From contig JAFWKQ010000034.1 in assembly GCA_017545665.1 (NCBI GenBank), positions 26,302-90,301 on the forward strand: a stretch of 64,000 nucleotides of DNA. Direction: 5' to 3'. Below the pieces are notes generated by a model that saw nothing but the letters and a program-made list of their open reading frames with translations, did not search any database and was not told the DNA's origin. Shown one piece after another: positions 39,469-57,099 of this stretch; within the stretch, counting starts at the first letter, position 1; each line of letters begins with the position of its first letter. Both the position numbers and the translations under genes were made by a program. The DNA is from Atopobiaceae bacterium (GTDB lineage: Bacteria > Actinomycetota > Coriobacteriia > Coriobacteriales > Atopobiaceae).

Positions 39469-40059
39469 TCAGAGGTCCAATATCTCGGAGATCACCCGCA
39501 CAACGATCTTTGCCACGGGTCCCTTTATCAGCTCGACAAAAAAGAGAACGATAAGGATAATGACGAAGAGCAAACCCCACATATCCTTCGAACGCTGCGC
39601 TATACCCATAGCAAACAGCCCTATGAGGATATATATGGACGCAATAATGAAGCGCAGCACATACTCAAATATGCTTGCACCAGTTGATCCCGTCGTTTTT
39701 GCGCGGCCAATCTTCCAGGAGTGCCCGCAGTTATTGCAGACACCATACGATGCGTAATGGTTGCGCCGCATGTTAAGGCCGTTGAGCGCAAACCCAAGGA
39801 GACCCGACTTCGCGTCCGACCGCTTTGTCATATACAGGTTGTTGCCGGACTTCCTAAGCGACGCCCTGCAGTTGGTGCTTCCGCAGCTTGGGCACACCAT
39901 GCCGCCGCCACCGCCCTGGTAGCCGCCACCGCCACTCTGACGACCAGATCCGCCTCCATTCATGCCATTCCCGCCACCAGAACTGCCCCCAGAGTAGCCC
40001 CCAGAAAAACCGCCGCCACTTTGCTGCGGCATTCCGCCACCCGAATAGCCGAAACCCAT
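39469..40059 (-). CDS. Glycine-rich / zinc-ribbon / C-terminal double-TM protein (paralogue 2)
   Basis: GGGAG lies 6 nt before ATG 40059. The product has MGFGYSGGGMPQQSGGGFSGGYSGG…GGGGYQGGGGGMVCPSCGSTNC…CNNCGHSWKIGR followed by two hydrophobic helices. A ~90-nt block (39707-39796) is identical to 40318-40407. Confidence 0.65.
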   Translation of the reverse strand: MGFGYSGGGMPQQSGGGFSGGYSGGSSGGGNGMNGGGSGRQSGGGGYQGGGGGMVCPSCGSTNCRASLRKSGNNLYMTKRSDAKSGLLGFALNGLNMRRNHYASYGVCNNCGHSWKIGRAKTTGSTGASIFEYVLRFIIASIYILIGLFAMGIAQRSKDMWGLLFVIILIVLFFVELIKGPVAKIVVRVISEILDL

Positions 40060-40080
40060 GGCCAACTCCCATCTTCACTA

Positions 40081-40626
40081 TCACCAAATACCAATGACCC
40101 TAAGAATTGCTTTGGATATGAATCCCGTGATTATGCTTACGAATGCAACGAGACTTATGACCACGCAAATTACGTATGTTTCGGACCAATGTGGGAGAAA
40201 TGCATAGTTGACGGCCGCAAGCGCCATGAAAATCACGATTCGCAGCGCTATTTCTATTGCAACCACGCCTCCGCTATGATCACTCGCGCCACCGCCGCCT
40301 CCGCCTCTTCCTGTCCTGCCAATCTTCCAGGAGTGCCCGCAGTTATTGCAGACACCATACGATGCGTAATGGTTGCGCCGCATGTTAAGGCCGTTGAGCG
40401 CAAACCCTAGGAGACCAGACTTCGCGTTCGGACGCTTTGTCATATACAGGTTGTCGCCGGACTTCCTGAGCGACGCCCTGCAGTTGGTGCTTCCGCAGCT
40501 TGGGCACACCATGCCGCCGCCACCGCCCTGGTAGCCGCCACCGCCCTGGTAGCCGCCACCTCCGCTGGAAAAGCCACCGCCGCTGTTTTGCCGTTGTGCG
40601 CTTCCACCCGTAGAGCCAAATCCCAT
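40081..40626 (-). CDS. Glycine-rich / zinc-ribbon / C-terminal double-TM protein (paralogue 1)
   Basis: GGAGG lies 6 nt before ATG 40626. The product has MGFGSTGGSAQRQNSGGGFSSGGGGYQGGGGYQGGGGGMVCPSCGSTNC…CNNCGHSWKIGR and C-terminal TM helices. Confidence 0.65.
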   Translation of the reverse strand: MGFGSTGGSAQRQNSGGGFSSGGGGYQGGGGYQGGGGGMVCPSCGSTNCRASLRKSGDNLYMTKRPNAKSGLLGFALNGLNMRRNHYASYGVCNNCGHSWKIGRTGRGGGGGGASDHSGGVVAIEIALRIVIFMALAAVNYAFLPHWSETYVICVVISLVAFVSIITGFISKAILRVIGIW

Positions 40627-40795
40627 GAGATACCTCCTTCGCCTGAACAGCGTTCGAGTTACCATTCTTCGCAGAACACTTTGAAATACTTTATGTGCAT
40701 CTGGGCTGGTGTGTTCCGCTGCGCATCAATATATCAAGCTGCGAACATAATCTGTTGTACAACGTATTCTTCTGTCCAGCAACTTGCACAGGAGG

Positions 40796-42439
40796 TTATT
40801 TTTTGTTCTCCTTACTCGCAGCGGCAGCGGCAGCCGCATCGGCCACCTGCTGTCGCGACCCCGCGAAGTTGTGCATCCATGAGGCGTAGTAATAGTCGTA
40901 TCGAATTGTTGCTCCCGCAGAGTCTGTTGCACGCACAACAAGGTGATCGGCCTGTATGGGTAAGTTGGACTCGCCAACGGGAAGAGGCGTCTTTGGCGCC
41001 ACTACCTCTCCAAAGGCATTTACCCACTCGTACGTCGCCCCCGTTATGGGATTGCTCTCTCTTGCGGCGGAAAGCGTCGTCTTTACGTTGTCAGCGGCAG
41101 GCGTAGTCTTAACGTTCACGCTGGTGTGCATCGATAGCACGCAGAGCAAAGCGACGCAGCAACATACCACAGTATCCCATTTTCTTGGCGCCGGAACATC
41201 TCCGGCACGATGCTTGTTCAATATCAAGAGCGTGGCAATGCCAAACACGAGTATTGCAGCCATCCGCACATACTCAATCGCCAAGTTGTGCCGCACGCCC
41301 AGCCATGCAACGGCTTCCACCACAAACGCGACGACTAAAAACACCCATACATTGGCATTCGCAAGGTACTTCCCCCTCTTGTCCCTAAGCACATATGCGG
41401 CCAAAAGGATTACGCAGGTAACAATGGCCGAGGGTACAAGGCCTGAACCGAGCATGCTCGAAAGCACGATGAAAACCACAAGCTCCACCGCAAAGCATGT
41501 GAGGGTGTCGAAGCCAAACGTCGTCTTGCCGGACTTTTCGTTGAATATGCATCTGTACACCGCCACCACGAGAGCCAGCATGAAGGCCCAGCTAAAGATG
41601 AAGTAGTAATCCATGAGCACTCGTATGCCAAGCACCAGTACGATGCAACCAAACAGCACAATGGAATCCGTGCTCCACCATATGGCCCCTGTGCTCCTTC
41701 GGTTCGAAAGAGCATATGCCATGCCCCCCAGCACGATGGCACACACAAGTACGCGCCACCACGCGAAGCCCTCCACTGGAAGGGCATACATGTTCTTAGC
41801 GATCTCAGGCGCTATGGCATTCGTGTAGGCCGAGCACCCAACTGCAATGAATACCGAAACCGCAAGCACAATAAGAGACAAGATCTTATCGAGCGTCTTG
41901 CGTTTGGGTTGAAGCATCTCGCTCATATACAGGCAAAGGGTCCAGAACGCGGCGCTAAAAACGTACACGGTGAAAACGATCTTGCCATTTCCCGCAAACT
42001 CAATGTGCTTGAATCCACCCGTGGCGAACGTGCCCAAAACGAGGGCCGATCCAACGCATCCGCCACCGACGCCCATCAGCCAAGGTTTCCATATGAAGCC
42101 AGCAATTAGGAGACCCACGCCAATCATCAGAAGGATGCCAAAGTCGTTCGTCGAAATCTTTTCGAACATCGTGCCGATTGCCTTGGCATCGTAGGCCGCG
42201 ATTATCTTATCGAACCACAGGGCAACATATGCCACCAGGTCCACGCACACATATGTGGCGATGTCCTCCATCACGCAGCTGGCCTTCCCCTTATACACAA
42301 GAAGGAACCCTGCCGCCGCCAGTACTACGCACACGCGCAATGCCCCAATGGGCTCCATGTGTCCCAGCATCATTATGAGTACCACAAGTGCGTTGGCACC
42401 AAACAACACCCCACGCCTTGCCATATTTAAAAGCTGCAT
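40796..42439 (-). CDS. Polytopic membrane protein (about 12 or more TM helices) with a ~110-aa extracytoplasmic C-terminal domain
   Basis: 547 aa, almost entirely successive hydrophobic helices up to about residue 430. It then has a soluble tail (…TTPAADNVKTTLSAARESNPITGATYEWVNAFGEVV…). ATG 42439 is preceded by GGGAAGGG. Confidence 0.7.
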   Translation of the reverse strand: MQLLNMARRGVLFGANALVVLIMMLGHMEPIGALRVCVVLAAAGFLLVYKGKASCVMEDIATYVCVDLVAYVALWFDKIIAAYDAKAIGTMFEKISTNDFGILLMIGVGLLIAGFIWKPWLMGVGGGCVGSALVLGTFATGGFKHIEFAGNGKIVFTVYVFSAAFWTLCLYMSEMLQPKRKTLDKILSLIVLAVSVFIAVGCSAYTNAIAPEIAKNMYALPVEGFAWWRVLVCAIVLGGMAYALSNRRSTGAIWWSTDSIVLFGCIVLVLGIRVLMDYYFIFSWAFMLALVVAVYRCIFNEKSGKTTFGFDTLTCFAVELVVFIVLSSMLGSGLVPSAIVTCVILLAAYVLRDKRGKYLANANVWVFLVVAFVVEAVAWLGVRHNLAIEYVRMAAILVFGIATLLILNKHRAGDVPAPRKWDTVVCCCVALLCVLSMHTSVNVKTTPAADNVKTTLSAARESNPITGATYEWVNAFGEVVAPKTPLPVGESNLPIQADHLVVRATDSAGATIRYDYYYASWMHNFAGSRQQVADAAAAAAASKENKK

Positions 42440-42452
42440 AATACCCTTCCCG

Positions 42453-43496
42453 TTAGATCAATGAGCTTATTGCCATCGATATGGTCCAAAGGACGAATAT
42501 GGCAACAGGAAATACGTACACATCGTCATAAGGTGACTTGCGAAAGTGCATGAACCCAAGTGCCAACACCGCAGCGCTGGCCAAGGAAAACAGAATGCCA
42601 AGCACGATGTTTGCCCCAAACCCAAATAGCGCAGCCAAGAGCATGAGCGCAAGCATACCAGCACTCAATATGAGCGTTTTTGAGTTGGCGCTCTTGCGGT
42701 TTAGGATGGTAAGTATGTTCGTTTGTCGCTCCGAGCTCAACGCAAGGGCGCCAAGACCCGTGTAGCACTCATACGCTTGAGTCCACGAACCAGTTCCCAG
42801 GCAGTAGTAATAGTCTCCAAGCTCCGCCATTGCTTGGGTGTTGCCCGCCGCGGCTGCCTCCGAAAGGAGCGTGATGCCGGTATTTTGGGTTGAGGCATCA
42901 TCGGACCCATGGAGCAGACAATACCCCATATAATGCTTTGCCAAGGGAATGCCCATCTCCACAAGCGGTTCGATGGGTTTAAAATCCAGCTCCAGCAGGG
43001 GCGATCCGTTATACACAGCCTTCCCCAGACTATTGCCAAAGCTCTGGAGCTCATTGTTGTAAAGCGACTCTGGGACCACGAACGCGCGTTCCTGCACAAG
43101 CGAGTCAGATGGCGGAGATGGCTCCCCATATTCGTATGCGATACCCGCAGCCAGCGAGAACGCTCGCAGGAATCTAACGATCTCGTACCTATTGAGTCCA
43201 GACTGCAGCTCTGCATTAGACGCAAAGCGGTCCAGATCGGCTTGGGCGCAGAATCCGCTATTGGTTACGAGCTCGCCAAAGCCATCTACCTTTGCCAACA
43301 GCAATGCCTTGCGTATATCGAGCTCGCTTACCCCACACTCCCCCATGAGCACGCGAAACCGATCCTCGTCCAACATCGCCTCGGCTCCGTGCTCAGACAC
43401 AATGCGCTGCATCGCCACATCAAGGTCTGTCGGCGAGTCATCTTCCAATCCCGCGTATTCGACCAGATCATTGCGAATGTCATCTACAAGACTCAC
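42453..43496 (-). CDS. Sel1/TPR-like repeat protein with a C-terminal membrane anchor
   Basis: GTG 43496 overlaps the TGA of the upstream gene (GTGA). The Sel1-like segment is AKHYMGYCLLHGSDDASTQNTGITLLSEAAAAGNTQAMAELGDYYY. Three hydrophobic helices lie at the C-terminus. Confidence 0.6.
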   Translation of the reverse strand: MSLVDDIRNDLVEYAGLEDDSPTDLDVAMQRIVSEHGAEAMLDEDRFRVLMGECGVSELDIRKALLLAKVDGFGELVTNSGFCAQADLDRFASNAELQSGLNRYEIVRFLRAFSLAAGIAYEYGEPSPPSDSLVQERAFVVPESLYNNELQSFGNSLGKAVYNGSPLLELDFKPIEPLVEMGIPLAKHYMGYCLLHGSDDASTQNTGITLLSEAAAAGNTQAMAELGDYYYCLGTGSWTQAYECYTGLGALALSSERQTNILTILNRKSANSKTLILSAGMLALMLLAALFGFGANIVLGILFSLASAAVLALGFMHFRKSPYDDVYVFPVAIFVLWTISMAISSLI

Positions 43497-44605
43497 GCCG
43501 CATCTTCCTCTCGTTCGTCCAGCCATCCGACTTCTTTGAACACGCGCAACCACGTCCTCGGTGACGGATTGCAGGTATCGTTCTCCCTCTTGGCATTTTT
43601 CTCCGCAAGCGTATACGCAAACAGCTCCTTTACCTGCTCGGGGCTCTCTTTCCATAGCGATATGATCGCCTCGTCTTCCGCAAAGAGGCCAAGCGTGTTT
43701 CTGGAGTCGTTTTCGTCAAAAATGAAAACTGGCATCTGATGGTATTTGCGGAACTTGTCATAGTGCTGGATCAGCGAATCGTCGGTCTCGCCAATGAGCA
43801 ACCTGCCGTCATAGGCGTAGTTCCCATACAACACATAGAACAAGAAGGCGGCGAGCGCATAGTTTTGCGTATGGAAGTCCATGCGGTCCACCAATCCCTG
43901 AACGTAGGCAGGTTCCATGAACTCAACCGGATATTCTCCCTGCTCAGGGGCACAAGCCCACAAGTCATTCGTGCCTCGCAAGCCATCGATGCTATACACA
44001 AGATTGGAGTAGTCCAACAACACGTTTCCCCGGGCGTTTACAAACATCCGAGAAAGGCTCATGTCCAAATAGGAGTATCCACAAAGGTTGAGGTTGTGAA
44101 TGGTGCGAACCGCCTCAACCGCAAGCGTGCGTACGGACTCCTCCTTCCACGAAGGCTCTTGCATGGCACCGTACACCACTTCCGCTCTGAGGATTTTGGG
44201 ATAGTCCCCATAGGGAAACAAGAGCGCATATGCGCCGCCCAGTTGGACAGGCTCTTTTGGCATGTCGGTATATTGGTTGTGGACGTAGGCCAAAAAGCCC
44301 TCCTGGTACTCGTGCAGTTCCACAAGATCGCTTGGCCAAAGAATCGAGTCGATTGCAGGAGGCCTGAGTATTTGCGCACGATACCGGCCGATCTCATTTG
44401 TAAAGCAGCGCAACCGCCGGGCGAAGAAACGCTCGCCGGTAATCGCGTTCTGCAAAAGAGGACACGCCTCCTTTTGGCCATTCGCGCCACCCACCGGGTC
44501 CTCTACGGTCTCCCCTGTCCACCTGTAAAGGCCATTACCGTACACGAGACTGTAATACATCTCGGTCTCCGTGTACTCCTTTGCAATATAACCGTCGAGT
44601 ATCAA
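43493..44605 (-). CDS. Protein-kinase-fold protein with atypical catalytic motifs
   Basis: TTG 44605 lies directly after GGAGGAGG and overlaps the upstream TGA (TTGA). The kinase-like order is GERFFARRL (VAIK-like), HNLNLCGYSYLDMSLSRMFVN (catalytic loop, no HRD), LLDYSNLV (DFG position), FMEPAYVQG (APE-like) and DFHTQNYALAAFLFYVLYGNYAY (helix F). Confidence 0.55.
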   Translation of the reverse strand: MILDGYIAKEYTETEMYYSLVYGNGLYRWTGETVEDPVGGANGQKEACPLLQNAITGERFFARRLRCFTNEIGRYRAQILRPPAIDSILWPSDLVELHEYQEGFLAYVHNQYTDMPKEPVQLGGAYALLFPYGDYPKILRAEVVYGAMQEPSWKEESVRTLAVEAVRTIHNLNLCGYSYLDMSLSRMFVNARGNVLLDYSNLVYSIDGLRGTNDLWACAPEQGEYPVEFMEPAYVQGLVDRMDFHTQNYALAAFLFYVLYGNYAYDGRLLIGETDDSLIQHYDKFRKYHQMPVFIFDENDSRNTLGLFAEDEAIISLWKESPEQVKELFAYTLAEKNAKRENDTCNPSPRTWLRVFKEVGWLDEREEDAA

Positions 44606-46596
44606 CGGCCTCCTCCAAACACTCTTGAGACTCTTGAGAAGATGCCTTTCTTCTGCTTGGGCTCATTTTTTCTCGGCGTCGCAGGTTCGTCGTCTCGACC
44701 TCGCTGCTGCGGAGCCTCTTGCTCCTGGTCTTGCGTTTGCGCGCTCGGCAGCGGCGCGTCAACTTCGGCTTCCCTTCTTCGCTGCCCAAAGCCAAAGCCG
44801 CCGCCCTTCTTTTTTTTCGGACGCAAAATGGCAAGCCATTCCTTTACGATGCTTTTGGTTTCCCTCGTTCCAATGTCACGCGAGCTTACATACTGCTTTG
44901 CAGATGCCACATACGATTCCTTCTGCAACAGCTTGGAATGCAGCACCGCCTCCGTTGGGTCATCGAGCATCAGCACTCGCAAGTCGTTGAACTCGTCAAA
45001 TATCTCGAAAGTGCTCCGCGAGCAGAGGTCGCCACCCACGATCAGCCATACGTCAATTGGGGTCACGTACTCTTGGTCGTGCCTCTCGCGTTCGATGCTG
45101 CAGGCACAAACGAGTTCCGCAACCTCCACTACCGTCTCTTTCGTAGCGCCAATGCCCCAGTGCCTATGCAGTTCCCCGTAGCATTGAACCAGCTCGTTGG
45201 CGTCTCCCTCATATAGCGTGCGACGCACTTCCGCCACTACGCTCAGCATGTCCGCTGACTTTGCGTTCGCAGCGATTTTGAGCCAATCCGCAAAGTAACG
45301 ATCGTCGCCCGTATAGCATTCTTTTGCATACGCGCAAAGCTTCTCTATAGCTAGCTCGCGCTCACTCATGCCTTCCGCGCCCAGAGGCTCGGCTGCGAAC
45401 GAAGACTCGTTCCTCTGGAAGAACTCGAATGTGTCGCCAAAGAAGTCCTCCTCGGAAATGGCCCCGTCCAGCTTGCGCCCAAGATAGGCAATGTCCGTAA
45501 TCATCTTGCAGCGCTGCGATTCATCGGCCATGTCCAGGTACGTCTGCAATGCATTGAAATCAAACGTGGCAATATCCACGCAATTCCAGTATGCACGCAG
45601 AGCATCCTTGCGACGGATGGGCACCATCTCGGGATTGCTCTCCCCATATAGGCGCTTCATAAGTAGCATATAGCTCTCGAAGTTCGGAACTATGGCAGAG
45701 ATGTCTTTGAGCGCATCCCCATATAGCCCATTGGCCATGTCGTCCACACGACTAACCATGCGCTCGCAATAGGGTAGCTCGCTCACGGCATCCAAGCCCT
45801 TGTTTGCAAGCTCCCAAGAGGGTTCATGCGAAGGCAAGACGATGTCTGCATAGTAACAATCCAGTATTTGGGCGCCCTTATGCGTCTGCTTGAGCCTGTT
45901 GCGATACCGCGCGCGCATCGACTTGTCCAAGCGCGCCAAACTCTGCGCCGCATCCTCAACCGGAAGCGCACTAAAGCGCTGAATGCGATACTGCTCGTCT
46001 ATGTTCTCAAGCTCGTCCAGCTTCGTAGCGGCTACTTTGTCGGCAAGATACGCCTCGCTCTCCTCCGTAAGCACCATGCTGCGACGAACGATCTCGGTCA
46101 TCAAAGCCACGATATAGGAATCCATACGCTCGGAACCCAAGGGGCGCGAACGCAAAACGTCGCTCAGCCGCTCCTCCAGCGTGGCGTCATCCAAGTCGCT
46201 CACGTCTGGCTGCACAATAAGGGTGTGGGCGATCTTGAGCACAAGAGGGTCGGATGCCGTTTGGTCACCGAGCTCCATGGCGGTTTGCTCCAGCTGCTCA
46301 AAGTATGCGTCCTCATCCAGGTCATACAAGTGAATCACGGCGTAGTCGGCAAAGCCATAGCGGTTGATCTTACGCTCAAGGCGCTTGTTGAGCACGTTGC
46401 TCTGGCCAGTCCTTGGATCAATGTAGAAGGGCTTTGACGTCGCGTTTACGCTAAATACCAACGTCTTGGTCTCGGCACCGTTGGAAGGGGCGGACGCCAC
46501 GCTCAAGCGCTTGCGAAGGAAGTACGGTATGCCCCAATAGATGCAATACAGAATGCTTCGCATATGGTCATCGGTACCATCGTATTGCACGTACAA
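44602..46596 (-). CDS. Large uncharacterised protein, distal part; in frame with 46630..47130 across a single TAG
   Basis: 664-aa ORF whose track start is a TTG only 11 sense codons after the TAG at 46630-46632. No SD precedes it, so it is most simply the continuation of the upstream ORF. Helical, with a C-terminal basic/Gly-rich tail (…KKKKGGGFGFGQRRREAE…). Confidence 0.55.
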   Translation of the reverse strand: MYVQYDGTDDHMRSILYCIYWGIPYFLRKRLSVASAPSNGAETKTLVFSVNATSKPFYIDPRTGQSNVLNKRLERKINRYGFADYAVIHLYDLDEDAYFEQLEQTAMELGDQTASDPLVLKIAHTLIVQPDVSDLDDATLEERLSDVLRSRPLGSERMDSYIVALMTEIVRRSMVLTEESEAYLADKVAATKLDELENIDEQYRIQRFSALPVEDAAQSLARLDKSMRARYRNRLKQTHKGAQILDCYYADIVLPSHEPSWELANKGLDAVSELPYCERMVSRVDDMANGLYGDALKDISAIVPNFESYMLLMKRLYGESNPEMVPIRRKDALRAYWNCVDIATFDFNALQTYLDMADESQRCKMITDIAYLGRKLDGAISEEDFFGDTFEFFQRNESSFAAEPLGAEGMSERELAIEKLCAYAKECYTGDDRYFADWLKIAANAKSADMLSVVAEVRRTLYEGDANELVQCYGELHRHWGIGATKETVVEVAELVCACSIERERHDQEYVTPIDVWLIVGGDLCSRSTFEIFDEFNDLRVLMLDDPTEAVLHSKLLQKESYVASAKQYVSSRDIGTRETKSIVKEWLAILRPKKKKGGGFGFGQRRREAEVDAPLPSAQTQDQEQEAPQQRGRDDEPATPRKNEPKQKKGIFSRVSRVFGGGR

Positions 46597-46629
46597 AGGC
46601 TTGCTAAACCCGCGTTCCGTCGTCTTCGC

Positions 46630-47130
46630 CTACACGCAACGCACGAGCGCAAGGTAGGATTCGTGACTTATGCCGGCCTTTGCCATGGCAGCATCGATGT
46701 CCAGGGGCGTCTCTCTTGCAAGTGGCGGCTTAAGCGCCTCGGCTTCTTCCTGGCTTCCCTTGAAGTTTTCGCTTGAGAGCCCAAGGAACACGTTAGGATC
46801 GGTTATGGAGCCGCTCTTCTGGAAGTCAAAGATAAGAGCATGCGAGAACATGTTCGCACGTCCAAGCCTGTCAAGCAGGCCATACTTACTTCGAATGGCA
46901 TACACGTACGCGCCGTCGCCATATAGCTCATAAAGGTCCAACACGTTGCCCTGCTCGTCGGTCATGGCACCCTGAATCGTTGAGTTGACGTTCTGCAGTT
47001 TGGTGCAAGTGCCAAGAACGTCCGACGGAATGCCAGGACTCACCGCAACAGCCTGCCAGCCAGAGCTCACCGTTCCGCCAAGGTTCACCTCAGCGTTCGT
47101 ATAGCAGCATTGAAAGTATTCGTTCGTCAT
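46630..47130 (-). CDS. Uncharacterised protein, proximal part (166 aa) ending at an in-frame TAG
   Basis: GGGGAG lies 7 nt before ATG 47130. The product MTNEYFQCCYTNAEVNLGG…SGWQAVAVSPGIP… has the same frame as 44602..46596. Confidence 0.55.
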   Translation of the reverse strand: MTNEYFQCCYTNAEVNLGGTVSSGWQAVAVSPGIPSDVLGTCTKLQNVNSTIQGAMTDEQGNVLDLYELYGDGAYVYAIRSKYGLLDRLGRANMFSHALIFDFQKSGSITDPNVFLGLSSENFKGSQEEAEALKPPLARETPLDIDAAMAKAGISHESYLALVRCV

Positions 47131-49415: not shown

Positions 49416-51299
49416 TCACCTTCCCTCGTCGGTAAGGATGTTCTGGGACAACACGTCGTGCACGTTCAAAACCTCAACCGCATTGCCGTAACCCGTGTCG
49501 TAGTAATAGGTGGAGGGCGAGAGGTCGTGCTTGAGGTTCTCGCTGAGCTTGGTTCCCTCCTTCAGCAGCACCGACTTAAGTGGCGTGGAGTTCAAGGAGA
49601 GGTTTACCTGCAAATACGTCTCCAAGTTTTCGCCGGTGAGCTTTTGTCGAATGTACTGCTGTGCGGTTTGCGCGTGGACGTCGCGACTCAGCCTGCTCTC
49701 CTGCTCGTCCTCATACGATGCCGTAAACACGGGATCGCTTTGGATGATGTCGTCAATTGCGTCAAAGAGGAACTTGCGAAGCTCGTCCAACGACGACACG
49801 TCTCTAAAGCTGCGCTTGAGCTCGAACCCATGCCTGTCCAAATAGTTGCGCACCTTTCCCTGATAGAACGCAACCAGATTGGTGTCGTGGACCTCGTGCA
49901 GCTCAAGGGTGGACCTGCACAGTTCCTTCCACACTTCCCTGAACTCGTTCGAGTATCGTGCTTGGTCGTCAATGGCATCCGCAAACAGTTCCGCAATCTC
50001 CTTGTTTGAAGACAATAGCACGCGCATCTTACGCTTGGCGTATTCGAGCACGTTGCCAGTTGCCGTCGGTTCGCTGGCATTCCTGAACATCTTGCGAATA
50101 TCGTCCGAATGAAGTGCCAGCGACACGAGCTCACCAACCTTGAACTCCTCGCTGAGCATGCGCTTGTATTCGTCAGACCACTGCTTGCGACGCATGCCAT
50201 CGGTGCGGACGCGCTCGAGTATGCCATTCACGAGCCCCTCAAGAACGGCGCTCCACGTTCCCATGGTGAGATTGTCAAGATCGTCGGCAGCATAGCCGCT
50301 AATGTCGCCAAAGTCGTCACTCGTCCAGCGGGGGAAGAGGTTTATCTGCTCCGGCGTCGGCAGCAAAGGTACCAATTGCTTTTCCACATAGTCGTCAAGC
50401 AGGGACAAGGTCCCATGGTCGTTGAAGCCCAGGCGCTGAGCCAGGCTCATGTCCTCAAAGTCGAGCACGTACGATATCTCGTCGTCGCCGCCCAAGTAGT
50501 CCACCAACGACCTCACAACAACCTGGCCAATGTCGTTTACCGGCTTCTCGTCGTGCACGTAGCTCACGGTGGCTACGCCGTCATGGAACAGCGTGTCCGC
50601 TATGTTCGTGTCGTCGTTGTTGGAGAGTGCCATCAAAGAGGCGCATATGCGATAGTGGCTGTCCCAGCCGTGCAGGAGCTTGCTCGTACTCAGGCGGTTG
50701 CTTAGAAGGAACATCCTGTATCGCTCATTGGCTCCGCCTTCGCAGTATTCGCTCATGGCATTGCGAATGCGCCTGGATTGGCGACGCCTGCGCTTGCCCT
50801 CGTCAAACAGGACGAAAAGCATCTGCATGATGTCGTTCTCGTAGATGTCCAGCTCGTCCTTTACGGCCTCGATGGTGCTTATCCATGCGTGCAAATCCTC
50901 AGCCGTTTGAATTGACGTGGCGTCGAGCACATAGTACAGGAGGTCACTGGTGTAGTCCTTAAAGTGATTGCGTGCATCGTCAAGTTCGTCAAGAACCTTT
51001 GCTACCTCATCGGTGGTCATGGGCGATTGCTGCCCATGCTCGAGCTTCACGAATTCCGGCGACTCACTAGGGCTCTTTACGCCTATGAACTTGAGCTCCT
51101 CCCTAAACTGTGGCCAAGCCAGCAGCAGGTTGCGAGAAATCGATTCATAGCCCTTCATCGATTCTTCGCCCAAAAAGAGCACGAGCATAGGGAAATAGGG
51201 CTCTTTCCCATGAACAGCACCCAACGAGTCCCTGTCTATGCTTTCGAGTCTCCTTGCGTAGTACTCGATGAGCTCCGCAGTCGTTATTTCCGCACTCAT
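49416..51299 (-). CDS. Uncharacterised 627-aa protein, possibly a degenerate (non-GTP-binding) tubulin-like paralogue
   Basis: From ATG 51299. The strand-loop segments PMLVLFLGEES, MQMLFVLFDEGKRRR and YRMFLLSNRL sit in the same order and spacing as LLIGLGGTG, VHIFSGLSGGTGSG and IFGYFFLPDV of the adjacent tubulin-like protein. The glycine signatures are lost. This resemblance is judged by eye only. Confidence 0.5.
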   Translation of the reverse strand: MSAEITTAELIEYYARRLESIDRDSLGAVHGKEPYFPMLVLFLGEESMKGYESISRNLLLAWPQFREELKFIGVKSPSESPEFVKLEHGQQSPMTTDEVAKVLDELDDARNHFKDYTSDLLYYVLDATSIQTAEDLHAWISTIEAVKDELDIYENDIMQMLFVLFDEGKRRRRQSRRIRNAMSEYCEGGANERYRMFLLSNRLSTSKLLHGWDSHYRICASLMALSNNDDTNIADTLFHDGVATVSYVHDEKPVNDIGQVVVRSLVDYLGGDDEISYVLDFEDMSLAQRLGFNDHGTLSLLDDYVEKQLVPLLPTPEQINLFPRWTSDDFGDISGYAADDLDNLTMGTWSAVLEGLVNGILERVRTDGMRRKQWSDEYKRMLSEEFKVGELVSLALHSDDIRKMFRNASEPTATGNVLEYAKRKMRVLLSSNKEIAELFADAIDDQARYSNEFREVWKELCRSTLELHEVHDTNLVAFYQGKVRNYLDRHGFELKRSFRDVSSLDELRKFLFDAIDDIIQSDPVFTASYEDEQESRLSRDVHAQTAQQYIRQKLTGENLETYLQVNLSLNSTPLKSVLLKEGTKLSENLKHDLSPSTYYYDTGYGNAVEVLNVHDVLSQNILTDEGR

Positions 51300-51387
51300 A
51301 TTAAATCTACCCGCCTTCAACGGTGGCACCGACGTTGCGCACATCATCGATGCCACCAGTCTTTGTTTCGGCTACCCCTCTTGGCAC

Positions 51388-54300
51388 CTAGATTCCGTTT
51401 TCCATGCAGAACAGTCTGAACTTGTCGTTAAACGTACCCACGAACTCCAATATCTCGGCACTCTCGGGGAAGGTGTTGGCAATCTGCGCCCAAGCGTTAA
51501 TACGGTTTTCGTCGATATTGCCCTTCAACGTGGTTCCCGTTTCGATTATCTGGGGCGAGTCCGCATTGTACAGATCCTCAACCTTCTTCTTTATGGCAGC
51601 CTTGTCGGCGGGATCGAGCTCCTTGTAGTTGAGGAAAGCCTGGTAGATGGGAATCCTGCCATAGGGGAACTCCGGGCCGAACTTCGAGAGCGTGATGTCG
51701 GTAGTAATGCCATGCTCAATGCGATGGTAGATTACCAAACGTCCTCCATAGGAAATGACGCCTGTGAAGAGTGCCTCGCAGAAGTCGGCCGCGTCCTGGT
51801 TTCCAACGCCCACGGCTTGGATGCGATCCTCGAGCGCCTTCTTCGCGGCGGCTGCTGCGTTGCGCACCTCGTCAATCTGATCGAGTATCTGGCTAACCAG
51901 AATCTGATAGGCCGGGGCATATACGAAGTGGTCCACGAACATGCGACGCTTGACCTCTGGATCGGTTGGTCCGTCGTCCATGAAGCTCGAGCCGCTGTAC
52001 TCCATTTGCAGATTGGACGCGGCATCAAGCGCAGACAGCGCCTGTTGGGCGTCGGCAATTTGATTGGGACGCTGTAGCTGCCCAACAAGCTGCTCGCACG
52101 TTGCGACGGCATTCCTCAACGCTTCGAGCGACTCGTCCGTCGGCTTGAGGATCCTGCGCGTGGAGTCAAACAATCCGGCGGCTTCCGCCCGATCAAAGAG
52201 CTCGCGGGCTGCCATTACGTTTTCCCGCACTTGGTGCGGAACCATGTCAAGACGCACCAAGCTCTGCGGAGTCAGCGGCGGAAGCTTGCGCCAATCGTCA
52301 AACACCATGCCCGGTATTGGCTTGCCCTCATAGAAATGTGTGCCGGGAACGGGCGTCACCTCAAAGTAGGAGTTCTCGTACTCATTGCAGTTGTTGTAGG
52401 CCGAAAGAGGCAACGCCGCAGAGCACGACATTACGTAGATGCGATCCGTAAGCGCACTCACCTTGATCTTGTAGTCCTCATCCACCGCATTGAGCCTCTC
52501 GGCTGCCTTGCGGACGGGCTCAGACGTATCTGGGACAGAGAGGAACGCCATGGTAGAGGCCTGATCCTCGCTCCACACGGTGCCGTTGAAGTGGAACAGG
52601 GGACGAGCGCGTTCCTTGAGCTTTACCATCCAGTCGCTGTACACGCGATTGGTAAGCTCCTCGTTGTTGTCCGTGTCATACTTGTCCTTGAGGAACGAGG
52701 TGATGGAGCGGCTGGCAAACTCGCCAAACGCCGTCTCGACGAAGAACTTCGTCACGGCCCTGCAGATTCTGTTCTCGTCCTCTTGCAGCCACTCCGCATC
52801 GTCTGCGAGAAGTGCACCCATAAGCGCACTGAACATGCCGGGCACGCTCACGTTCGCAATCTGAGTGTCCATGGAGGCCTTGAGCTCGTCGATGCTCATG
52901 AGCGGCATTGCGAACGCATCCTCAACCGTCGCCTGTCGCTCCGACGCAAGTACGTCCGCGTTCTCCTTAAACGTATCGATGAGGTTCGACGTCACGCGTG
53001 CAAGGCGTGCGTAGTACCGAGCGTCCACATCCTCGATCTGCGACTTAAGAACACGCAGGGTCTTGTCCATCATGGCATAGCAATCCAAGGCGAGCAGGTG
53101 GATCTCCCAGGCATTGAACTCTTTCTTGTAGTCCTCGAACCGCTTCCGGTCGTTATCCATAAACCCGCGCTTTATGCGGCTGTGGAAGGTGTTCTTCGCG
53201 TTTTCGTAGTTCTGGCGGAAGACGTCGTCGTTGTAGTTCTCCGTATCCCAGCTGCGCTGGTTCTCGGTTATGAGTCCGTCTACGATATTAAGCATGTTGT
53301 GGCTCATGGCCGCAGAGAGCATACCGTGCGCAAAGATGGGCCCAAGCTCGACGTTTCGAATGATATCCACCATCGCATTGCGAATGCGGTTTATGAGCGA
53401 GTTCTCGTTGTCCTCACTCTGCATGCTGAGGGCGTTCTTCTCGGCAATGCCCTTCTTGTTTGCGGCGAGTCCGGCATAGTGCCTCACCATGCCTGCGCTG
53501 CCATCGCTGAGTGCGAGCTTGAAGTCGTCGCCCCAGTCTTCGAACATGAAGTCAAACCCCTGCTGCATCTCGGTCGTAAGACGGTTGTACAGCTGAGATA
53601 TGTCTCCTTCCCTGCTGTTGCCAAGGGAGGCCATGGCAAACACCTCGATGTCCCTCTTCGTGGGAAGGTTTTTGCCAACACCGCTAAACTTCCCAAACAG
53701 TTCCGAGGCAAGATAGGTGTTAACCTCGCGCAAGGGCAGACTCGCGCAGGCGGCTCCGATGACGCAGTAATTGAGATTGACACCGTAGCGCTTGGTGCCA
53801 TCGCCCATGTTTACGCAGTTCGTGAAATTGGAGAGCTGCGACTCCATGGTAAAGCCCTCGCTCTTGGTGAGGAAGTCCATAACGTACTCCGCCGTAACGT
53901 TCATGGCGTATTCGTACGCCTTGGGCACGACGTTGTTGTTCGTATCGGTGGCGCACACCAGGTGGCAAAGGTCGACGGGCATCGTATCCCACTCGATCTG
54001 GGTGCCCTGGTAGTTCTGGACGAACGCACCGCCGTTCTCCTTAAGCTGCATGCAGTAGTCGAGCTCCTGCATGGCAGCATAGCCGTTGCGGGGGATGTAT
54101 GCGCGAACCTTACCGTTTGAGTACGGGATGCGAGAGAGGTTTACGTCAGGTAAGAAAAAGTAGCCAAAAATGGTTACGTTCCCTACCTTCTGCGCAATGT
54201 GGCGGACTATGTAGCACACATCCAGGAAGGTGCCCGAACCCGTGCCACCGCTCAGGCCACTGAAGATGTGCACGTAAACCGTGGGGTTGGTGAGCCCGCT

Positions 54301-54825
54301 CTTGGCAGCATTGATCTCCTGCTCGATCCTGTTTGCAAACCGGTTGGACTTTGTCATGAGCATGTAGCGACCAACCTGGCGAATGCCGCCAGCGCCAGCC
54401 ACGGTGAGGTCGCCCGCCTTGATGTCCTCATAGCGCAGCCAGTTGAGCTCCCTGAGGTCGGCCAGGGCGAGCTTGTTGGAAAGGTCCCTCTTAACGTGAC
54501 CGTTGGCAATGGAGAAGTACTCGGTGTCGCTCAGCGCGAGGAGCGAGTCGGCACGCCCCTCCTCTTCGGATCCGGAGATGCCACGGCTCTTCTGGTCGGT
54601 GTCTACGCCAAGAAAGCGGATGTGGTCGTATGTGGGAACAATGGCATCCGGGTCGTCGGGCTTCAGGCGAGAGTGAACCTGCGTCTTAATGGTTCGAAGA
54701 CAATCGACGCCCGTACCGCCCAAACCGATGAGCAGATTGGCCGCATTGGGCTCCTGATCGGCCTGCTGCTGCAAGGAGACTATTCCTCCACCCGCGCTCA
54801 GCAAAAGCTTTGAGTAAACTGCCAT
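51388..54825 (-). CDS. Giant tubulin/FtsZ-superfamily protein (FtsZl-1 / Pfam 'Tubulin like' type)
   Basis: 1145 aa. The N-terminal GTPase domain has LLIGLGGTGVD (T1-like), GAGGIRQVGR and the tubulin signature SGLSGGTGSGTFLD. About 800 aa of helical extension follows. GAGGAAGG lies upstream of ATG 54825. Confidence 0.8.
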   Translation of the reverse strand: MAVYSKLLLSAGGGIVSLQQQADQEPNAANLLIGLGGTGVDCLRTIKTQVHSRLKPDDPDAIVPTYDHIRFLGVDTDQKSRGISGSEEEGRADSLLALSDTEYFSIANGHVKRDLSNKLALADLRELNWLRYEDIKAGDLTVAGAGGIRQVGRYMLMTKSNRFANRIEQEINAAKSGLTNPTVYVHIFSGLSGGTGSGTFLDVCYIVRHIAQKVGNVTIFGYFFLPDVNLSRIPYSNGKVRAYIPRNGYAAMQELDYCMQLKENGGAFVQNYQGTQIEWDTMPVDLCHLVCATDTNNNVVPKAYEYAMNVTAEYVMDFLTKSEGFTMESQLSNFTNCVNMGDGTKRYGVNLNYCVIGAACASLPLREVNTYLASELFGKFSGVGKNLPTKRDIEVFAMASLGNSREGDISQLYNRLTTEMQQGFDFMFEDWGDDFKLALSDGSAGMVRHYAGLAANKKGIAEKNALSMQSEDNENSLINRIRNAMVDIIRNVELGPIFAHGMLSAAMSHNMLNIVDGLITENQRSWDTENYNDDVFRQNYENAKNTFHSRIKRGFMDNDRKRFEDYKKEFNAWEIHLLALDCYAMMDKTLRVLKSQIEDVDARYYARLARVTSNLIDTFKENADVLASERQATVEDAFAMPLMSIDELKASMDTQIANVSVPGMFSALMGALLADDAEWLQEDENRICRAVTKFFVETAFGEFASRSITSFLKDKYDTDNNEELTNRVYSDWMVKLKERARPLFHFNGTVWSEDQASTMAFLSVPDTSEPVRKAAERLNAVDEDYKIKVSALTDRIYVMSCSAALPLSAYNNCNEYENSYFEVTPVPGTHFYEGKPIPGMVFDDWRKLPPLTPQSLVRLDMVPHQVRENVMAARELFDRAEAAGLFDSTRRILKPTDESLEALRNAVATCEQLVGQLQRPNQIADAQQALSALDAASNLQMEYSGSSFMDDGPTDPEVKRRMFVDHFVYAPAYQILVSQILDQIDEVRNAAAAAKKALEDRIQAVGVGNQDAADFCEALFTGVISYGGRLVIYHRIEHGITTDITLSKFGPEFPYGRIPIYQAFLNYKELDPADKAAIKKKVEDLYNADSPQIIETGTTLKGNIDENRINAWAQIANTFPESAEILEFVGTFNDKFRLFCMENGI

Positions 54826-54909
54826 TTTTTAAAATCCTTCCTCGTCTGTTGTCATCGGACGTCAACTACCAATGGAAATGCTTGGGGCTGTCCCTTCTCG
54901 GCCGTCTTC

Positions 54910-57099
54910 CTAGGTTCCAGGCCTACGGGGAGGACGCCTTTGCGCTCCCTGTCCTCCGCCAAAGCCACCACCGGATTTCTGCGATCCCTGCTGATTCATG
55001 CGACCTGCGCCTCCGCCGAAGCCACCGGCAGAACGGTTCTGCGCACCCTGCGTGTGCTTGACGCCACCGCCGAAGCCACCAGCACCGCCAGTGCCCGCCC
55101 GCATGACGCTTTCAAAGCGGATGTTCAAAGTCTTTCCAGGCTCCACGACCACTACCACGGGGGCGCCGCTGTCGATGCGCACCTCTTTGGTCGAATTGCC
55201 GTTGCACGACACGGGGTTGTTCGTGCGGAGGAGTACGTAGCGATCTCCCGTTGCCTGGAAATACGACTTTACGTAGTCGAGGCCCGTGGGGCTGAGCTCA
55301 AAGCGACTGAGCGGGAGACGGCCGCGGCTTCCCTTTACCGTCTTGGGTGCAGAATGGACGCCATCCACCGCGGATTCCACGGTAATCTCGCCGCGGAATG
55401 GCTTCCTCAGAGCGATCCTAAAGAGGATGATGAGCACAATGATGGCAACTATTGCCGCCACGCCTATACCAATGAGCGCCATCAGACCAACGTTGTGGCT
55501 GGTAACGACAATCTCCACGTCGCAATACTTGCCTAGGCTGTCCACCGCACGCACGGTAAAGCCGCCCTTGCTCATGCTGAATTTGGACAAGGTGAGCTTG
55601 TTTCCGTCTACGGTGTAATCGCCATCCATGAACGAGCTGGAGATTACCTTGTACTGCAACGCGTCACCCTGCTCATCGGTTGCGAGCTTTCCAAGATCGA
55701 TCGTAAGGGAGTTGTCCTTGAAGGGCCATATCATAACGGTCTCTTCAACCGGATTGGCAACCGGGACGGGAGCGGTGTTGTTCTTCTCGGCTTCGGTGGA
55801 GGCCTTAGAGCTTACGGCCATGCTGCCGATGATGTCGGAGGTGCGGTCGAGGTGGTTCCCCGTTACGTGAACCCTGAAGTTGTATGCTCCCTCGGGAAGC
55901 TTATGCGCCACCTCGAAGTGATCGCCCTCTAGCTTCATGGGCACGGACTCAACCGGGGCGTTGAACGAGTCCAGAACCTCCAGAGCCGCCTCATAGCCCA
56001 CGTATTGGTCCGTCTTCGCCCTGCCGGCCTTCCCCGCCGTAAGGAACGCCCTCACCGTAAGGGGATCATTGGGGTTGATGGGACCTTCCGCGGGCTGCAA
56101 TTCGCTCTCCACGCCCAAGTCGCTGTTGAACACCATGTTGATCTTCACGGCATCGCCTGGCACGCCTTCGGTTACGAGCTTCCACGTACCTGGCACAACG
56201 TCTGCTATCTTAAGGAGCGTGAACGTATTTGACTCAACGGCCTCGGGCGTCGACGCGCTCCCGTCCGGCCGAGTCACCGTAAACGACTTTGCCTTGCCAT
56301 AGATAACGATGTTTATCTCTTCGACGCCGATGCCCGGTACGTCAAAGGTTGTCTCGAGCTTGCCGTCGGCGGAAAACTTCCCATCGCCAATGGACACGGT
56401 GGAGGTCCCGTATATGAGATTGTAGAAGGTGTTGAATACGTCCTGCAGATCTTCAGCCTTTTTTACCTCGGCAAACTCGCCGCCCGTGGCACCAGATATC
56501 TGTTGCATCTCCGAAATATCCGCGGTATTGTCGGCATTCAGGCACACGCTATATATTTTGATCTTATTGTCACGCGCCGCCTGCACGCTTTCTGCCTTCT
56601 TGTCCAAAGAGGCTTTTAGATCGTCCGCATTGGGCAGGTCCGTGTTACCGTCGCTCAGAAGCAGGATTACGGATGGCAGGTTTTTGTCTCCGTCCTTTTT
56701 GATCATGTTTACGGCAGTGTCGAGCCCCGCGCCAATGTTTGTGTCACCGCGGGCCTCCACGGAGGCAAGCTTGTCCACGACTGCCCTCTTGTCGGCTTGG
56801 CTCTTTACGGGCGCGAGGTCCTGCTGCGCCTCCACGGCAGTCGTAAACACGACTCCACCAAGTTCGTTACCGCTATTTGCCAATAAGTTCGTAAACTGAT
56901 TTATGGCCTCGAATCTTAGGCCATCAGGATCGGTTGTTTTCATGGAACCACTGGCATCGAGCACCATAACAACGTTAAACCTATTGTTCGCAGGTGCAGA
57001 CCCTCCCTCCGCACGGGCTAGCGCTAGCGGTAGCATCACCAACGAAAGCGTTGCCGCGACCACGGCACATAGGAACTTACGCAACGTTTTTGTTCTCAT
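54910..57099 (-). CDS. Secreted/transmembrane von Willebrand factor A protein with Ig-like spacers, a single TM and a cytoplasmic FHA-like segment plus Gly-rich tail
   Basis: GGAGGAAG lies 5 nt before ATG 57099. The signal peptide is KFLCAVVAATLSLVMLPLALARA. The vWA MIDAS motif is VVMVLDASGSM…GDTNIG…LLLSDGNTD. The TM is LMALIGIGVAAIVAIIVLIILF. The tail is …GGAGGFGGGVKHTQ…GGFGGGAGRMNQQGSQKSGGGFGGGQGAQRRPPRRPGT. Confidence 0.82.
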   Translation of the reverse strand: MRTKTLRKFLCAVVAATLSLVMLPLALARAEGGSAPANNRFNVVMVLDASGSMKTTDPDGLRFEAINQFTNLLANSGNELGGVVFTTAVEAQQDLAPVKSQADKRAVVDKLASVEARGDTNIGAGLDTAVNMIKKDGDKNLPSVILLLSDGNTDLPNADDLKASLDKKAESVQAARDNKIKIYSVCLNADNTADISEMQQISGATGGEFAEVKKAEDLQDVFNTFYNLIYGTSTVSIGDGKFSADGKLETTFDVPGIGVEEINIVIYGKAKSFTVTRPDGSASTPEAVESNTFTLLKIADVVPGTWKLVTEGVPGDAVKINMVFNSDLGVESELQPAEGPINPNDPLTVRAFLTAGKAGRAKTDQYVGYEAALEVLDSFNAPVESVPMKLEGDHFEVAHKLPEGAYNFRVHVTGNHLDRTSDIIGSMAVSSKASTEAEKNNTAPVPVANPVEETVMIWPFKDNSLTIDLGKLATDEQGDALQYKVISSSFMDGDYTVDGNKLTLSKFSMSKGGFTVRAVDSLGKYCDVEIVVTSHNVGLMALIGIGVAAIVAIIVLIILFRIALRKPFRGEITVESAVDGVHSAPKTVKGSRGRLPLSRFELSPTGLDYVKSYFQATGDRYVLLRTNNPVSCNGNSTKEVRIDSGAPVVVVVEPGKTLNIRFESVMRAGTGGAGGFGGGVKHTQGAQNRSAGGFGGGAGRMNQQGSQKSGGGFGGGQGAQRRPPRRPGT

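Follow-up and report, generated by a model that had tools for sequence, protein, structure and literature searches.

We describe an 11-gene locus on the minus strand of a 64,000-nucleotide (nt) stretch of DNA from an Atopobiaceae bacterium (the whole stretch is referred to below as the window), in which a giant tubulin-like protein is encoded together with a vWA surface protein, a DO-GTPase and a predicted GAP1 partner. The locus almost certainly represents the tubulin theme of the GAP1-N2 DO-GTPase systems, which is to say the FtsZl1/vWA/GTPase system. FtsZl1 (Pfam Tubulin_2) and its operons were defined by Makarova and Koonin in 2010 (Biol Direct, PMC2875224), who found in them vWA proteins with an intact metal ion-dependent adhesion site (MIDAS) together with a divergent GTPase and protein kinases, as well as OmpA proteins and lineage-specific membrane proteins, and who proposed a role in membrane remodelling or vesicle biogenesis; GAP1 was not recognised at that time. 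DO-GTPases and GAP1 were defined by Kaur, Burroughs, Iyer and Aravind (eLife 2020, PMC7159879), whose main text proposes that they form regulated conflict systems and describes the tubulin and vWA neighbourhood of firmicutes and actinobacteria as the largest GAP1-N2 theme (52%). Our comparison with this wholly computational work covers its main text. The present locus is not new in kind. It adds a further member to the class, with lineage-specific genes and a disrupted core gene.

All coordinates given here are positions in the window. Operon genes are lettered A to K, and the starts given follow paralogy and the calls made for near-identical contigs. The features of the operon and its borders are as follows:

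57100..57584, no strand: divergent intergenic region of 485 nt, AT-richer, between gene A and a plus-strand operon; likely promoter region
54910..57099, minus strand: gene A, predicted vWA surface protein, 729 amino acids (aa)
51388..54825, minus strand: gene B, giant protein with a predicted FtsZ/tubulin-fold GTPase domain, 1145 aa
49416..51299, minus strand: gene C, conserved orphan, an alpha/beta domain at its N-terminus and helical in its C-terminal region, 627 aa
48740..49411, minus strand: gene D, conserved small orphan cytoplasmic protein, 223 aa
47172..48719/48725, minus strand: gene E, DO-GTPase2-type P-loop GTPase between zinc ribbons, 515-517 aa
44602..47130, minus strand: gene F, predicted GAP1 (GAP1-N2 type), 842 codons, with an in-frame TAG at 46630-46632
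43493..44605, minus strand: gene G, protein-kinase-fold protein, 370 aa
42453..43496, minus strand: gene H, soluble N-terminal region, Sel1 repeats and two C-terminal transmembrane (TM) helices, 347 aa
40796..42439, minus strand: gene I, polytopic membrane protein with a conserved C-terminal soluble domain, 547 aa
40081..40626, minus strand: gene J, glycine-rich N-terminus, CxxC...CxxC zinc ribbon and two TM helices; lineage-specific
39469..40059, minus strand: gene K, tandem paralogue of J with a glycine-rich N-terminus, zinc ribbon and two TM helices
39199..39231, minus strand: terminator-like hairpin

The open reading frames (ORFs) form an unbroken row on the minus strand at 39469-57183, with the 11 genes at 39469-57099, and all those listed by an earlier annotation made from the letters of this DNA (hereafter, the sequence-only reading) are present on that strand where it had placed them. 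Spacers measure 84 nt between A and B, 88 nt between B and C, 4 nt between C and D (49411/49416), 14 nt between D and E, 41 nt between E and F, 13 nt between H and I, and 15-21 nt between J and K. Genes F and G overlap by 4 nt (TTGA, 44602-44605), as do G and H (GTGA, 43493-43496); both overlaps and the 4-nt gap are just as had been described. The largest gap lies between I and J, at 130 nt with the conventional start of J or 169 nt with an ATG start common to J and its paralogue K. A purine-rich, Shine-Dalgarno-like stretch lies 5' of every gene start from A to K. Promoter and terminator consensus scans of the region gave counts not above shuffled expectation. The best hairpin has a 13-bp stem followed by a T-run and lies 238 nt downstream of K. 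GC content drops to 0.51 in 56001-58000, and promoter-like hexamers occur on both strands at 57259-57414, their number again not above shuffled expectation. No Rfam families were found in the window. We infer a single A-K operon from spacing and conservation alone, and the membership of J and K in the unit is unproven because the largest gap precedes them and they are absent from every other locus. What had been proposed as one translationally coupled unit holds with respect to its overlaps and short gaps, and genes A-I keep their order elsewhere; J and K are not conserved with A-I.

The product of gene B is identical to NCBI MBR3224462.1 (IKF78_03980, annotated as a hypothetical protein) and matches Pfam Tubulin_2 with an E-value of 4.2e-60 (204 bits, against a cutoff of 27). 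Sequence profiles barely reach the solved tubulins: searched against PDB sequences, the profile of B, whether full-length or N-terminal, returned only a sub-threshold RepX/TubZ match at the GGTG motif (E 0.4). The protein was therefore modelled at full length with AlphaFold2, using a 50-sequence alignment. The resulting model has a mean predicted local distance difference test (pLDDT) score of 88.8 and a predicted template modelling (pTM) score of 0.74, and a Foldseek search of the PDB with this model yielded 224 matches at E<=1e-3. The top matches are all FtsZ, CetZ, TubZ, BtubA, and eukaryotic or Asgard tubulins, the best of them having an E-value of 2e-6 at a probability of 1.0, with ~350 aligned columns and a target TM-score of ~0.5. 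Going by this model, the FtsZ/tubulin fold is assigned to the N-terminal domain of B (residues ~25-385) with high confidence. The domain is fused to a ~750-aa C-terminal region, modelled at residues 390-1145 as mostly helical with two small alpha/beta modules. The T1 loop GLGGTG (34-39) and the T4 loop GGTGSG (193-198) are invariant, and an hhalign comparison of the B profile with a hand-entered E. coli FtsZ sequence aligned the T1, 'NTD', T3 and T4 motifs at E 4e-4. The sequence-only reading had recognised a tubulin-like protein of 1145 aa with an intact GGTGSG signature and had named profile or structure comparison of 51388..54825 as a test that could overturn it; the Tubulin_2 match and the modelled fold both came out tubulin-like. 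It is plausible that B forms a GTP-dependent polymer, because its two-domain fold and T1-T4 loops are common to the polymers of the tubulin superfamily.

Gene A encodes a protein with a signal or anchor sequence at residues 9-27 and a TM helix at 542-560, as placed by hydropathy. A vWA domain (~42-223) is followed by ~300 aa of beta-sandwich (Ig-like) modules leading up to the TM helix; beyond it lie a conserved beta-rich domain of ~110 aa (~563-670) and a variable glycine-rich tail. Given the hydropathy assignments, the vWA domain and the beta-sandwich modules are predicted to be extracytoplasmic, and the beta-rich domain and tail to be cytoplasmic. Pfam VWA is matched at E 1.5e-13, the domain is present in 26/26 family members, and the MIDAS is intact, with D48, S50, S52, T120 and D150 invariant across the 26 homologues. 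In PDB searches the A profile matched extracellular vWA domains only, among them those of mussel thread matrix protein, the anthrax toxin receptor and ITIH. Weak GBD_Hemicentin-like Pfam matches were found in the ectodomain of 17/26 members, together with scattered cadherin, PKD and Big matches, and the FN3 model had no match in the ectodomain of A (231-540). Identity to homologues falls from 52% in the vWA domain to 37% in the ectodomain and 5% in the tail. The FHA-like label that had been given to this protein is not supported; no FHA match was seen in the 26 members with Pfam or in the PDB profile search.

Gene E, for which the ATG at 48719 is the likely start, matches Pfam DO-GTPase2 at E 1.5e-6 (28.5 bits against a cutoff of 27), and nearly all of the 120 homologues listed carry a precomputed PF19993 assignment. 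The Walker A motif GITGAGKT (172-179), the Walker B-Glu motif DVAGE (257-261) and SKxD (335-338) are invariant, as are cysteines of an N-terminal cluster (C8, C11, C144, C149 and C152) and of a C-terminal ribbon (C470, C473, C504 and C507). The PDB matches of the E profile are weak and fall among P-loop GTPases, namely SRP54 (E 0.009), Arf/Sar (0.12) and FlhF. The earlier description of a GTPase flanked by zinc ribbons agrees with the family match, the P-loop GTPase motifs and the cysteine clusters. Directly downstream, the protein of ~842 aa that had been called unknown is, on the evidence of its family alignments, GAP1, the partner of DO-GTPase E. Its 166-aa fragment matches Pfam GAP1-N2 at E 3.5e-6 (27.5 bits against a cutoff of 24), and the intact protein scores 23.5 bits against the same cutoff. 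Within the GAP1 family (n=31), GAP1-N2 is matched by 14 members, GAP1-M by 11 and GAP1-C by none. Residues 421-760 share only 14% identity among homologues, which makes them the fastest-evolving stretch of the cassette. Its C-terminus consists of a low-complexity polar linker and, last of all, a short hydrophobic and basic peptide, KKGIFSRVSRVFGGGR. Terminal peptides resembling G-[LIF]-F-G..KKK occur in 39/45 GAP1 homologues, with KKGIFSRVSRVFGGGR, GLFGKK and GIFGMFKKKK as examples. The C-termini of MinD and FtsA are amphipathic membrane-targeting sequences, and E. coli MinD ends in ...KGFLKRLFGG. GAP1 homologues likewise end in a hydrophobic and basic peptide following a disordered polar linker, a resemblance for which homology is not claimed. 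The peptide could instead be a docking motif, by analogy with the C-terminal peptide of FtsZ.

Gene C has no Pfam, NCBIfam or PADLOC match. A set of 1.84 billion proteins contains 203 representatives of its clusters, and almost all of these measure ~620 aa. Its model is poor (pLDDT 61) and has no Foldseek match at E<=1e-3. That C is the second tubulin of the firmicute versions was not supported: hhalign to the tubulin profile gave a probability of 0.4%, the PDB profile search was empty, and the best tubulin match of the low-confidence model had a Foldseek E-value of 0.22. Nor was C supported as a degenerate second DO-GTPase, hhalign being negative and the Foldseek matches to Drp1, Mx, SRP54 and Rab having E>=1.7e-3 at low probability. 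Gene D, with neither a family match nor a PDB match, always lies between C and the GTPase (41/55 loci; see below) and has W28, G94, Y104, P188 and T190 as invariant residues; a relationship to the cytoplasmic domain of A was not supported by hhalign.

The kinase fold that had been read into gene G is borne out by its 29-member family profile, which matched 670 PDB kinase sequences (best E 2.4e-9) and aligned the catalytic-loop, DFG, APE and F-helix regions; 9/29 members match Pfam Pkinase weakly. The residues at the beta3-Lys, HRD-Asp, catalytic-Asn and DFG-Asp positions vary from member to member, and G is therefore probably catalytically inactive and pseudokinase-like. Its sole invariant residues are structural (S19, Y27, W90, P91, D93, F256, F294, F296, N303 and W318). 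Membrane association of the following genes had also been anticipated correctly. Gene H belongs to a family in which 17/29 members match Pfam Sel1 (best 5e-10), with TM helices at 297-315 and 329-347 by hydropathy, and gene I is polytopic, with ~12 hydrophobic segments, nearly invariant W472, L500, D506 and G509, and no Pfam family in 24 members. J and K are 56% identical over their whole length, and their zinc-ribbon cores are almost the same. Hydropathy places TM segments in five products in all: A, H, I, J and K. Glycine-rich GGGF/GGFGGG stretches occur in four products, namely the tails of A (54910-55090) and GAP1 (44602-44850) and the N-termini of K and J (39900-40060 and 40480-40626). 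Among A homologues, a similarly glycine-rich tail was seen only in Olsenella (L053). They may serve in interaction or condensation in this lineage specifically, or may reflect no more than composition.

In order to assess conservation, a pattern scan with the GTPase alignment was run against 185,579 species genomes and yielded 55 loci, several of them truncated by contig ends. By tblastn and ORF clustering, genes A-B-C-D-E-F-G-H-I are collinear on the same strand in ~30-45 other species genomes. Clusters were recovered for F in 46 of the 55 loci, for C in 42, for B, D and E in 41 each, for A in 38, for G in 32, and for H and I in 29 each, with the gene I cluster directly after H in 29 loci. 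Co-occurrence of the homologues, on which the sequence-only reading had also staked its case, is thus strongly conserved, with 38-41 of the 55 loci carrying the vWA, tubulin and GTPase genes. J, K and the divergent plus-strand operon (U1-U5) are in none of the 55 loci, nor were J/K analogues found there by homology or by CxxC, glycine-rich and TM pattern. Most loci are from Oscillospiraceae, Oscillibacter, Dysosmobacter and other Clostridia metagenome-assembled genomes (MAGs), with others in Coriobacteriaceae, Olsenella, Bifidobacterium callimiconis and Pseudolactococcus hodotermopsidis. The host, Atopobiaceae, belongs to the Coriobacteriia in the phylum Actinomycetota. The window proteins are closest to the versions of Oscillospiraceae, which is of another phylum (54-59% identity), and share 31-45% identity with those of Olsenella and Coriobacteriaceae; this closer similarity to the Oscillospiraceae versions suggests horizontal transfer or mis-binning. 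Carriage by plasmids or phages was not supported, since tblastn of the GTPase against 72,556 plasmids and of the tubulin domain against 50,697 phage records gave no match.

Several related loci differ in content. A second tubulin-family gene lies upstream of B in L012, L036, L037 and L039, and a second vWA gene of ~410-445 aa lies downstream of I in L008, L012, L016 and L036; loci with two tubulins and two vWA genes fit the 'firmicute' form described in the main text of Kaur et al. (PMC7159879). Bifidobacterium callimiconis (NZ_QXGJ01000008.1, 102883-140557) carries two DO-GTPase loci ~16 kb apart on one contig (L042 and L050), the second of which is without a tubulin and has two much longer GTPase-family ORFs of 1054 and 1201 aa. 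The second locus may be a different theme placed beside the tubulin system. L057 and L058, from Thermomonospora, share the GTPase domain alone (25-26% identity), and they probably belong to another DO-GTPase theme because a tubulin, vWA protein or GAP1 of this type was not detected in them by tblastn. The loci of a rumen Oscillibacter sub-lineage (L019-L025) are without G, H and I. Rows of short ORFs (~155-230 aa) lie directly downstream of GAP1 in L021 (16013-17932, minus strand) and L025 (15678-16661, minus strand), and our guess is that these account for the four TerD Pfam matches found among flanking ORFs.

In the window, the TAG at 46630-46632 splits the 842 codons of gene F in frame into ORFs of 166 aa and 664 aa, and NCBI annotates two hypothetical proteins, MBR3224458.1 and MBR3224457.1, of 166 and 653 aa (locus tags IKF78_03955/03960). 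The locus was compared with three independent assemblies (L001-L003; two ENA metagenomes and one Logan assembly), in which it is 99.98% identical, with 3 differences in 22.6 kb. All three read TAT (Tyr167) at the position of the TAG, leaving gene F intact at 842 codons, and tyrosine is the consensus at this position in the homologue alignment (the majority of homologues). A second difference in F lies 8 nt away, where the window has ACG and the other assemblies ATG. At the sole three differences from L001 (46622, 46630 and 43182), the window has G or C and L001 has T. Two differences 8 nt apart would be odd for random mutation and may be a MAG consensus artefact. Programmed recoding or pyrrolysine was rejected, given that three near-identical assemblies read TAT and that tyrosine is the consensus residue. 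Judging from these alignments, the TAG is a nonsense mutation or consensus error of this one MAG, and the operon accordingly has 11 genes; the count of 11 that had been offered as an alternative holds, and that of twelve ORFs does not. With its GAP1 cut short at codon 167, this assembly may carry an inactive system.

Outside the operon, the window contains the following features:

2489-5674, minus strand: protein of 1061 aa bearing a DUF4116 repeat and a calcineurin-like phosphoesterase domain; sits at the defence island's far edge
10116-11141: DpnII endonuclease
11803-12738: D12 methyltransferase, which pairs with DpnII
14299-17439: PLD-ResIII-helicase-DUF3427 protein
18064-19761: AIPR abortive-infection protein, in a low-GC stretch (0.44)
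20825-23419: ResIII helicase
24523-25500: HpaII endonuclease, C-terminal fragment
26724-28958: DUF4145-UvrD helicase
29194-32259: AAA_11/AAA_12-DUF2726 helicase-nuclease
35609-36376, plus strand: NUDIX hydrolase, between the defence island and the operon
36467-37786, minus strand: GH5 cellulase, between the defence island and the operon
37977-38837, minus strand: lipoprotein-like ORF of 286 aa, between the defence island and the operon
57585-63521, plus strand: divergent five-gene operon U1-U5, with no informative Pfam matches

The restriction and abortive-infection genes at 10116-32259 make up the defence island that the sequence-only reading had placed beside the locus; it lies upstream of the operon, ~7 kb away. 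No consistent association with defence islands in general was found in the 1-5 kb flanks of 38 other loci, where a few ORFs matched reverse-transcriptase/DRT models and TerD genes occurred in one sub-lineage. The GH5 enzyme is in keeping with a gut or rumen habitat. In the divergent operon, U1, U3, U4 and U5 measure 389, 183, 787 and 362 aa, and U2 has a zinc ribbon and a single TM helix. The paralogues U4 and U5 are 37% identical over 355 aa, and their TPR/SNAP-like matches are weak. This operon had been described as TIR-like/TPR and as paired with the locus. TIR-like proteins had no Pfam support in U1-U5, and the pairing recurs in 0/55 loci. As it is absent from all 55 related loci, the divergent operon is not part of the tubulin system.

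Taken as a whole, our best explanation of the locus, which we regard as somewhat probable, is that of a membrane-tethered, GTP-gated, polymerising sensor-effector that contains infection. In this explanation the vWA domain with its MIDAS, together with the beta-sandwich stalk, would bind a ligand outside the membrane, which could be a surface protein of phage or foreign origin or an envelope that has been perturbed. The signal would then be relayed through the one TM helix of A to its conserved cytoplasmic domain, the direction of signalling being presumed. The DO-GTPase/GAP1 pair would act as a nucleotide-dependent switch that sets a threshold, GAP1 being held at the membrane by its C-terminal amphipathic basic peptide in the manner of MinD and FtsA, if that peptide does target membranes. 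The output would be GTP-dependent polymerisation of B at the membrane, together with C, D and the kinase-fold scaffold, and the polymer, as the putative effector, would work on or through H and I, so that the envelope is remodelled or disabled, or division is blocked, and the infection is contained. Competence for nucleotide binding agrees with the conservation of the B T1-T4 loops and the E GTPase motifs in sequence alignments. The switch-plus-polymer mechanism is put forward tentatively, and a biological role in conflict or containment, a little better placed, still falls just short of being probable. Accessory or conflict-like behaviour is suggested by a patchy distribution, the patterns used having found 55 loci in 185,579 species genomes, by closest relatives in another phylum, by the fast-evolving C-terminal half of GAP1, by lineage-specific add-ons, by a nonsense allele in 1/4 assemblies, and by a restriction and abortive-infection island 7 kb off.

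A number of results weigh against this explanation. The operon has no recognisable toxin, nuclease, protease or pore effector, and a PADLOC-DB 2.0 scan at E<=0.01 returned no match for ten products (A-I, with GAP1 as two fragments; J and K were outside the scan). The T7 catalytic residue of B is not mapped because the hhalign alignment to E. coli FtsZ breaks before T7. GAP1-M (E<=0.01) and GAP1-C were not detected in the window's own GAP1. The 123 flanking ORFs of the 38 other loci (1-5 kb of flank per locus) are mostly housekeeping, and full-text literature searches found no experimental study of any member, in line with what the sequence-only reading had stated. The missing toxin-like effector and PADLOC match, and the housekeeping genes that flank most related loci, speak for a housekeeping membrane-remodelling or cytoskeletal machine, in which the polymer and GTPase shape membranes, vesicles or the envelope with no immune role; all components point to the membrane, and the context analysis of Makarova and Koonin (PMC2875224) favours such a machine. 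We nevertheless consider it unlikely, as the distribution is very patchy with similarity across phyla, GAP1, H and I diverge rapidly, one assembly tolerates a nonsense allele, and the defence island adjoins the locus in the window. Conventional FtsZ-based division is presumably encoded elsewhere in these genomes, which also counts against a housekeeping role. A surface adhesion or cell-cell signalling module, in which a vWA/Ig-like adhesin is clustered by the GTPases and polymer with no anti-invader role, is less likely again. Among solved structures the vWA domain comes nearest to extracellular vWA domains with adhesive or receptor functions, the A ectodomain has Ig-like and cadherin-like matches, and the main text of Kaur et al. 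(PMC7159879) ties such systems to a multicellular habit; against this, nine cytoplasmic or membrane partners go far beyond the needs of known adhesin systems, the ectodomain is short (~500 aa), and no sortase/LPXTG signal was seen in the translation.

Two further rivals concern the integrity of the locus rather than its role. It could be a decaying, non-functional relic in this genome, with the GAP1 nonsense codon real and inactivating, since the TAG in place of a conserved tyrosine and the second substitution 8 nt away are seen in this assembly only and NCBI annotates two separate hypothetical proteins. We think this somewhat unlikely: the remaining ten genes are all intact, at 99.98% identity to contigs with an intact GAP1, so that any inactivation must be very recent; an error of sequencing or of the MAG consensus is just as possible; and a split GAP1 (the N2 domain and the remainder) might still work. 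That A-I are merely neighbours and not one functional unit is extremely unlikely, for their order and strand are conserved across phyla and their stop and start codons overlap or nearly abut, even though the promoter and terminator scans were uninformative and J and K are not conserved with the remaining genes. Returning to the sensor-effector that contains infection, the polymer itself could be the effector of a surface-triggered, abortive-infection-like containment working through an undescribed membrane output module composed of the pseudokinase-like scaffold, the Sel1-repeat protein, the polytopic protein and GAP1 tethered in MinD-like fashion, a specific version that we consider rather improbable.

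If true, this would be the first bacterial immune system to kill or contain by cytoskeletal polymerisation and not by an enzyme or pore, and an immune role with a polymer effector would represent a new principle in prokaryotic defence. The operon class is among the largest bacterial tubulin-superfamily systems and has been predicted twice by comparative genomics, for membrane remodelling in 2010 and for conflict in 2020. To these predictions the present analysis adds high-confidence structural support, from modelling, for the tubulin fold, a nine-gene collinear core with some components that neither paper discusses in its main text, and a testable idea of how GAP1 may reach the membrane. This instance is a refinement of a known class rather than a surprise; the class is unusual. 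Experiments might be better served by other carriers than by the MAG with its interrupted GAP1, and Bifidobacterium callimiconis 2028B, Pseudolactococcus hodotermopsidis Hs30E4-3 and Clostridia bacterium UC5.1-1D4 are perhaps suitable; all three are titled like strain or isolate genomes and not MAGs.

Among known systems, FtsZ, TubZ, PhuZ, CetZ and BtubAB share with B its two-domain fold and its nucleotide-binding loops T1-T4, at a sequence identity of only 9-15%. B is three times longer than these proteins owing to its ~750-aa C-terminal region, and none of the proteins encoded with it in the operon is related to the functions of the divisome, of plasmid partition or of the phage nucleus. The TerY-P triad of a vWA protein, a PP2C phosphatase and a Ser/Thr kinase is said to have been reported as an anti-phage system by Gao and colleagues in 2020. 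The window shares with this triad a vWA protein and a kinase-fold protein in one operon, but it has no PP2C, the kinase fold is without conserved catalytic residues, and the vWA domain is predicted to be extracytoplasmic. A kinase/PP2C/vWA theme does exist among the GAP1-N2 systems described in the main text of PMC7159879.

With the FtsZl1 operons (PMC2875224) the window shares a Tubulin_2 protein, a vWA protein with an intact MIDAS and TM segments, a divergent cysteine-rich P-loop GTPase, a kinase-like gene and lineage-specific membrane proteins. The FtsZl1 assignment of the sequence-only reading, an operon of tubulin, vWA protein and distinct GTPase, is thereby confirmed. So is its remark on the missing OmpA component, of which no match was found in any of the 11 products; this absence follows from the Gram-positive host, and OmpA is not obligatory for FtsZl1, having been reported only in several, mostly proteobacterial, genomes (PMC2875224). 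The modules that had been called extra to the original description are less new than supposed, because protein kinases and lineage-specific membrane proteins were already named there. The main text of PMC7159879 has no mention of the Sel1-TM and polytopic proteins. Neither does that main text mention pseudokinase-like proteins, C, D or the terminal GAP1 peptide. Prior description had been credited to Makarova and Koonin (2010), correctly, with the work of Kaur et al. (PMC7159879) overlooked, in whose main text the conflict hypothesis was put forward.

As set out in the main text of that later paper, the marks of GAP1-N2 systems include GAP1-M and GAP1-C domains and a protein with rapidly evolving FNIII repeats. 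The window is without the HRDC-FNIII protein, the YtkA-vWA protein and the second tubulin described there, and the C-terminal zinc ribbon on its GTPase is extra to the N-terminal ribbon or ribbons of those systems. It agrees with the tubulin theme of that text in having a TRAFAC-type GTPase of the DO-GTPase family with a Walker-B Glu and zinc ribbons, an N2-type GAP1 directly downstream of the GTPase (41 nt here) with a polar extension, a tubulin-domain protein with a long helical C-terminal region, and a membrane-bound vWA protein with beta-rich modules, as well as in the firmicute and actinobacterial hosts and the membrane-proximal setting. The two forms distinguished in the same main text are mixed in the window, which combines the single tubulin and membrane vWA protein of the 'actinobacterial' form with the polar GAP1 tail of the 'firmicute' form.

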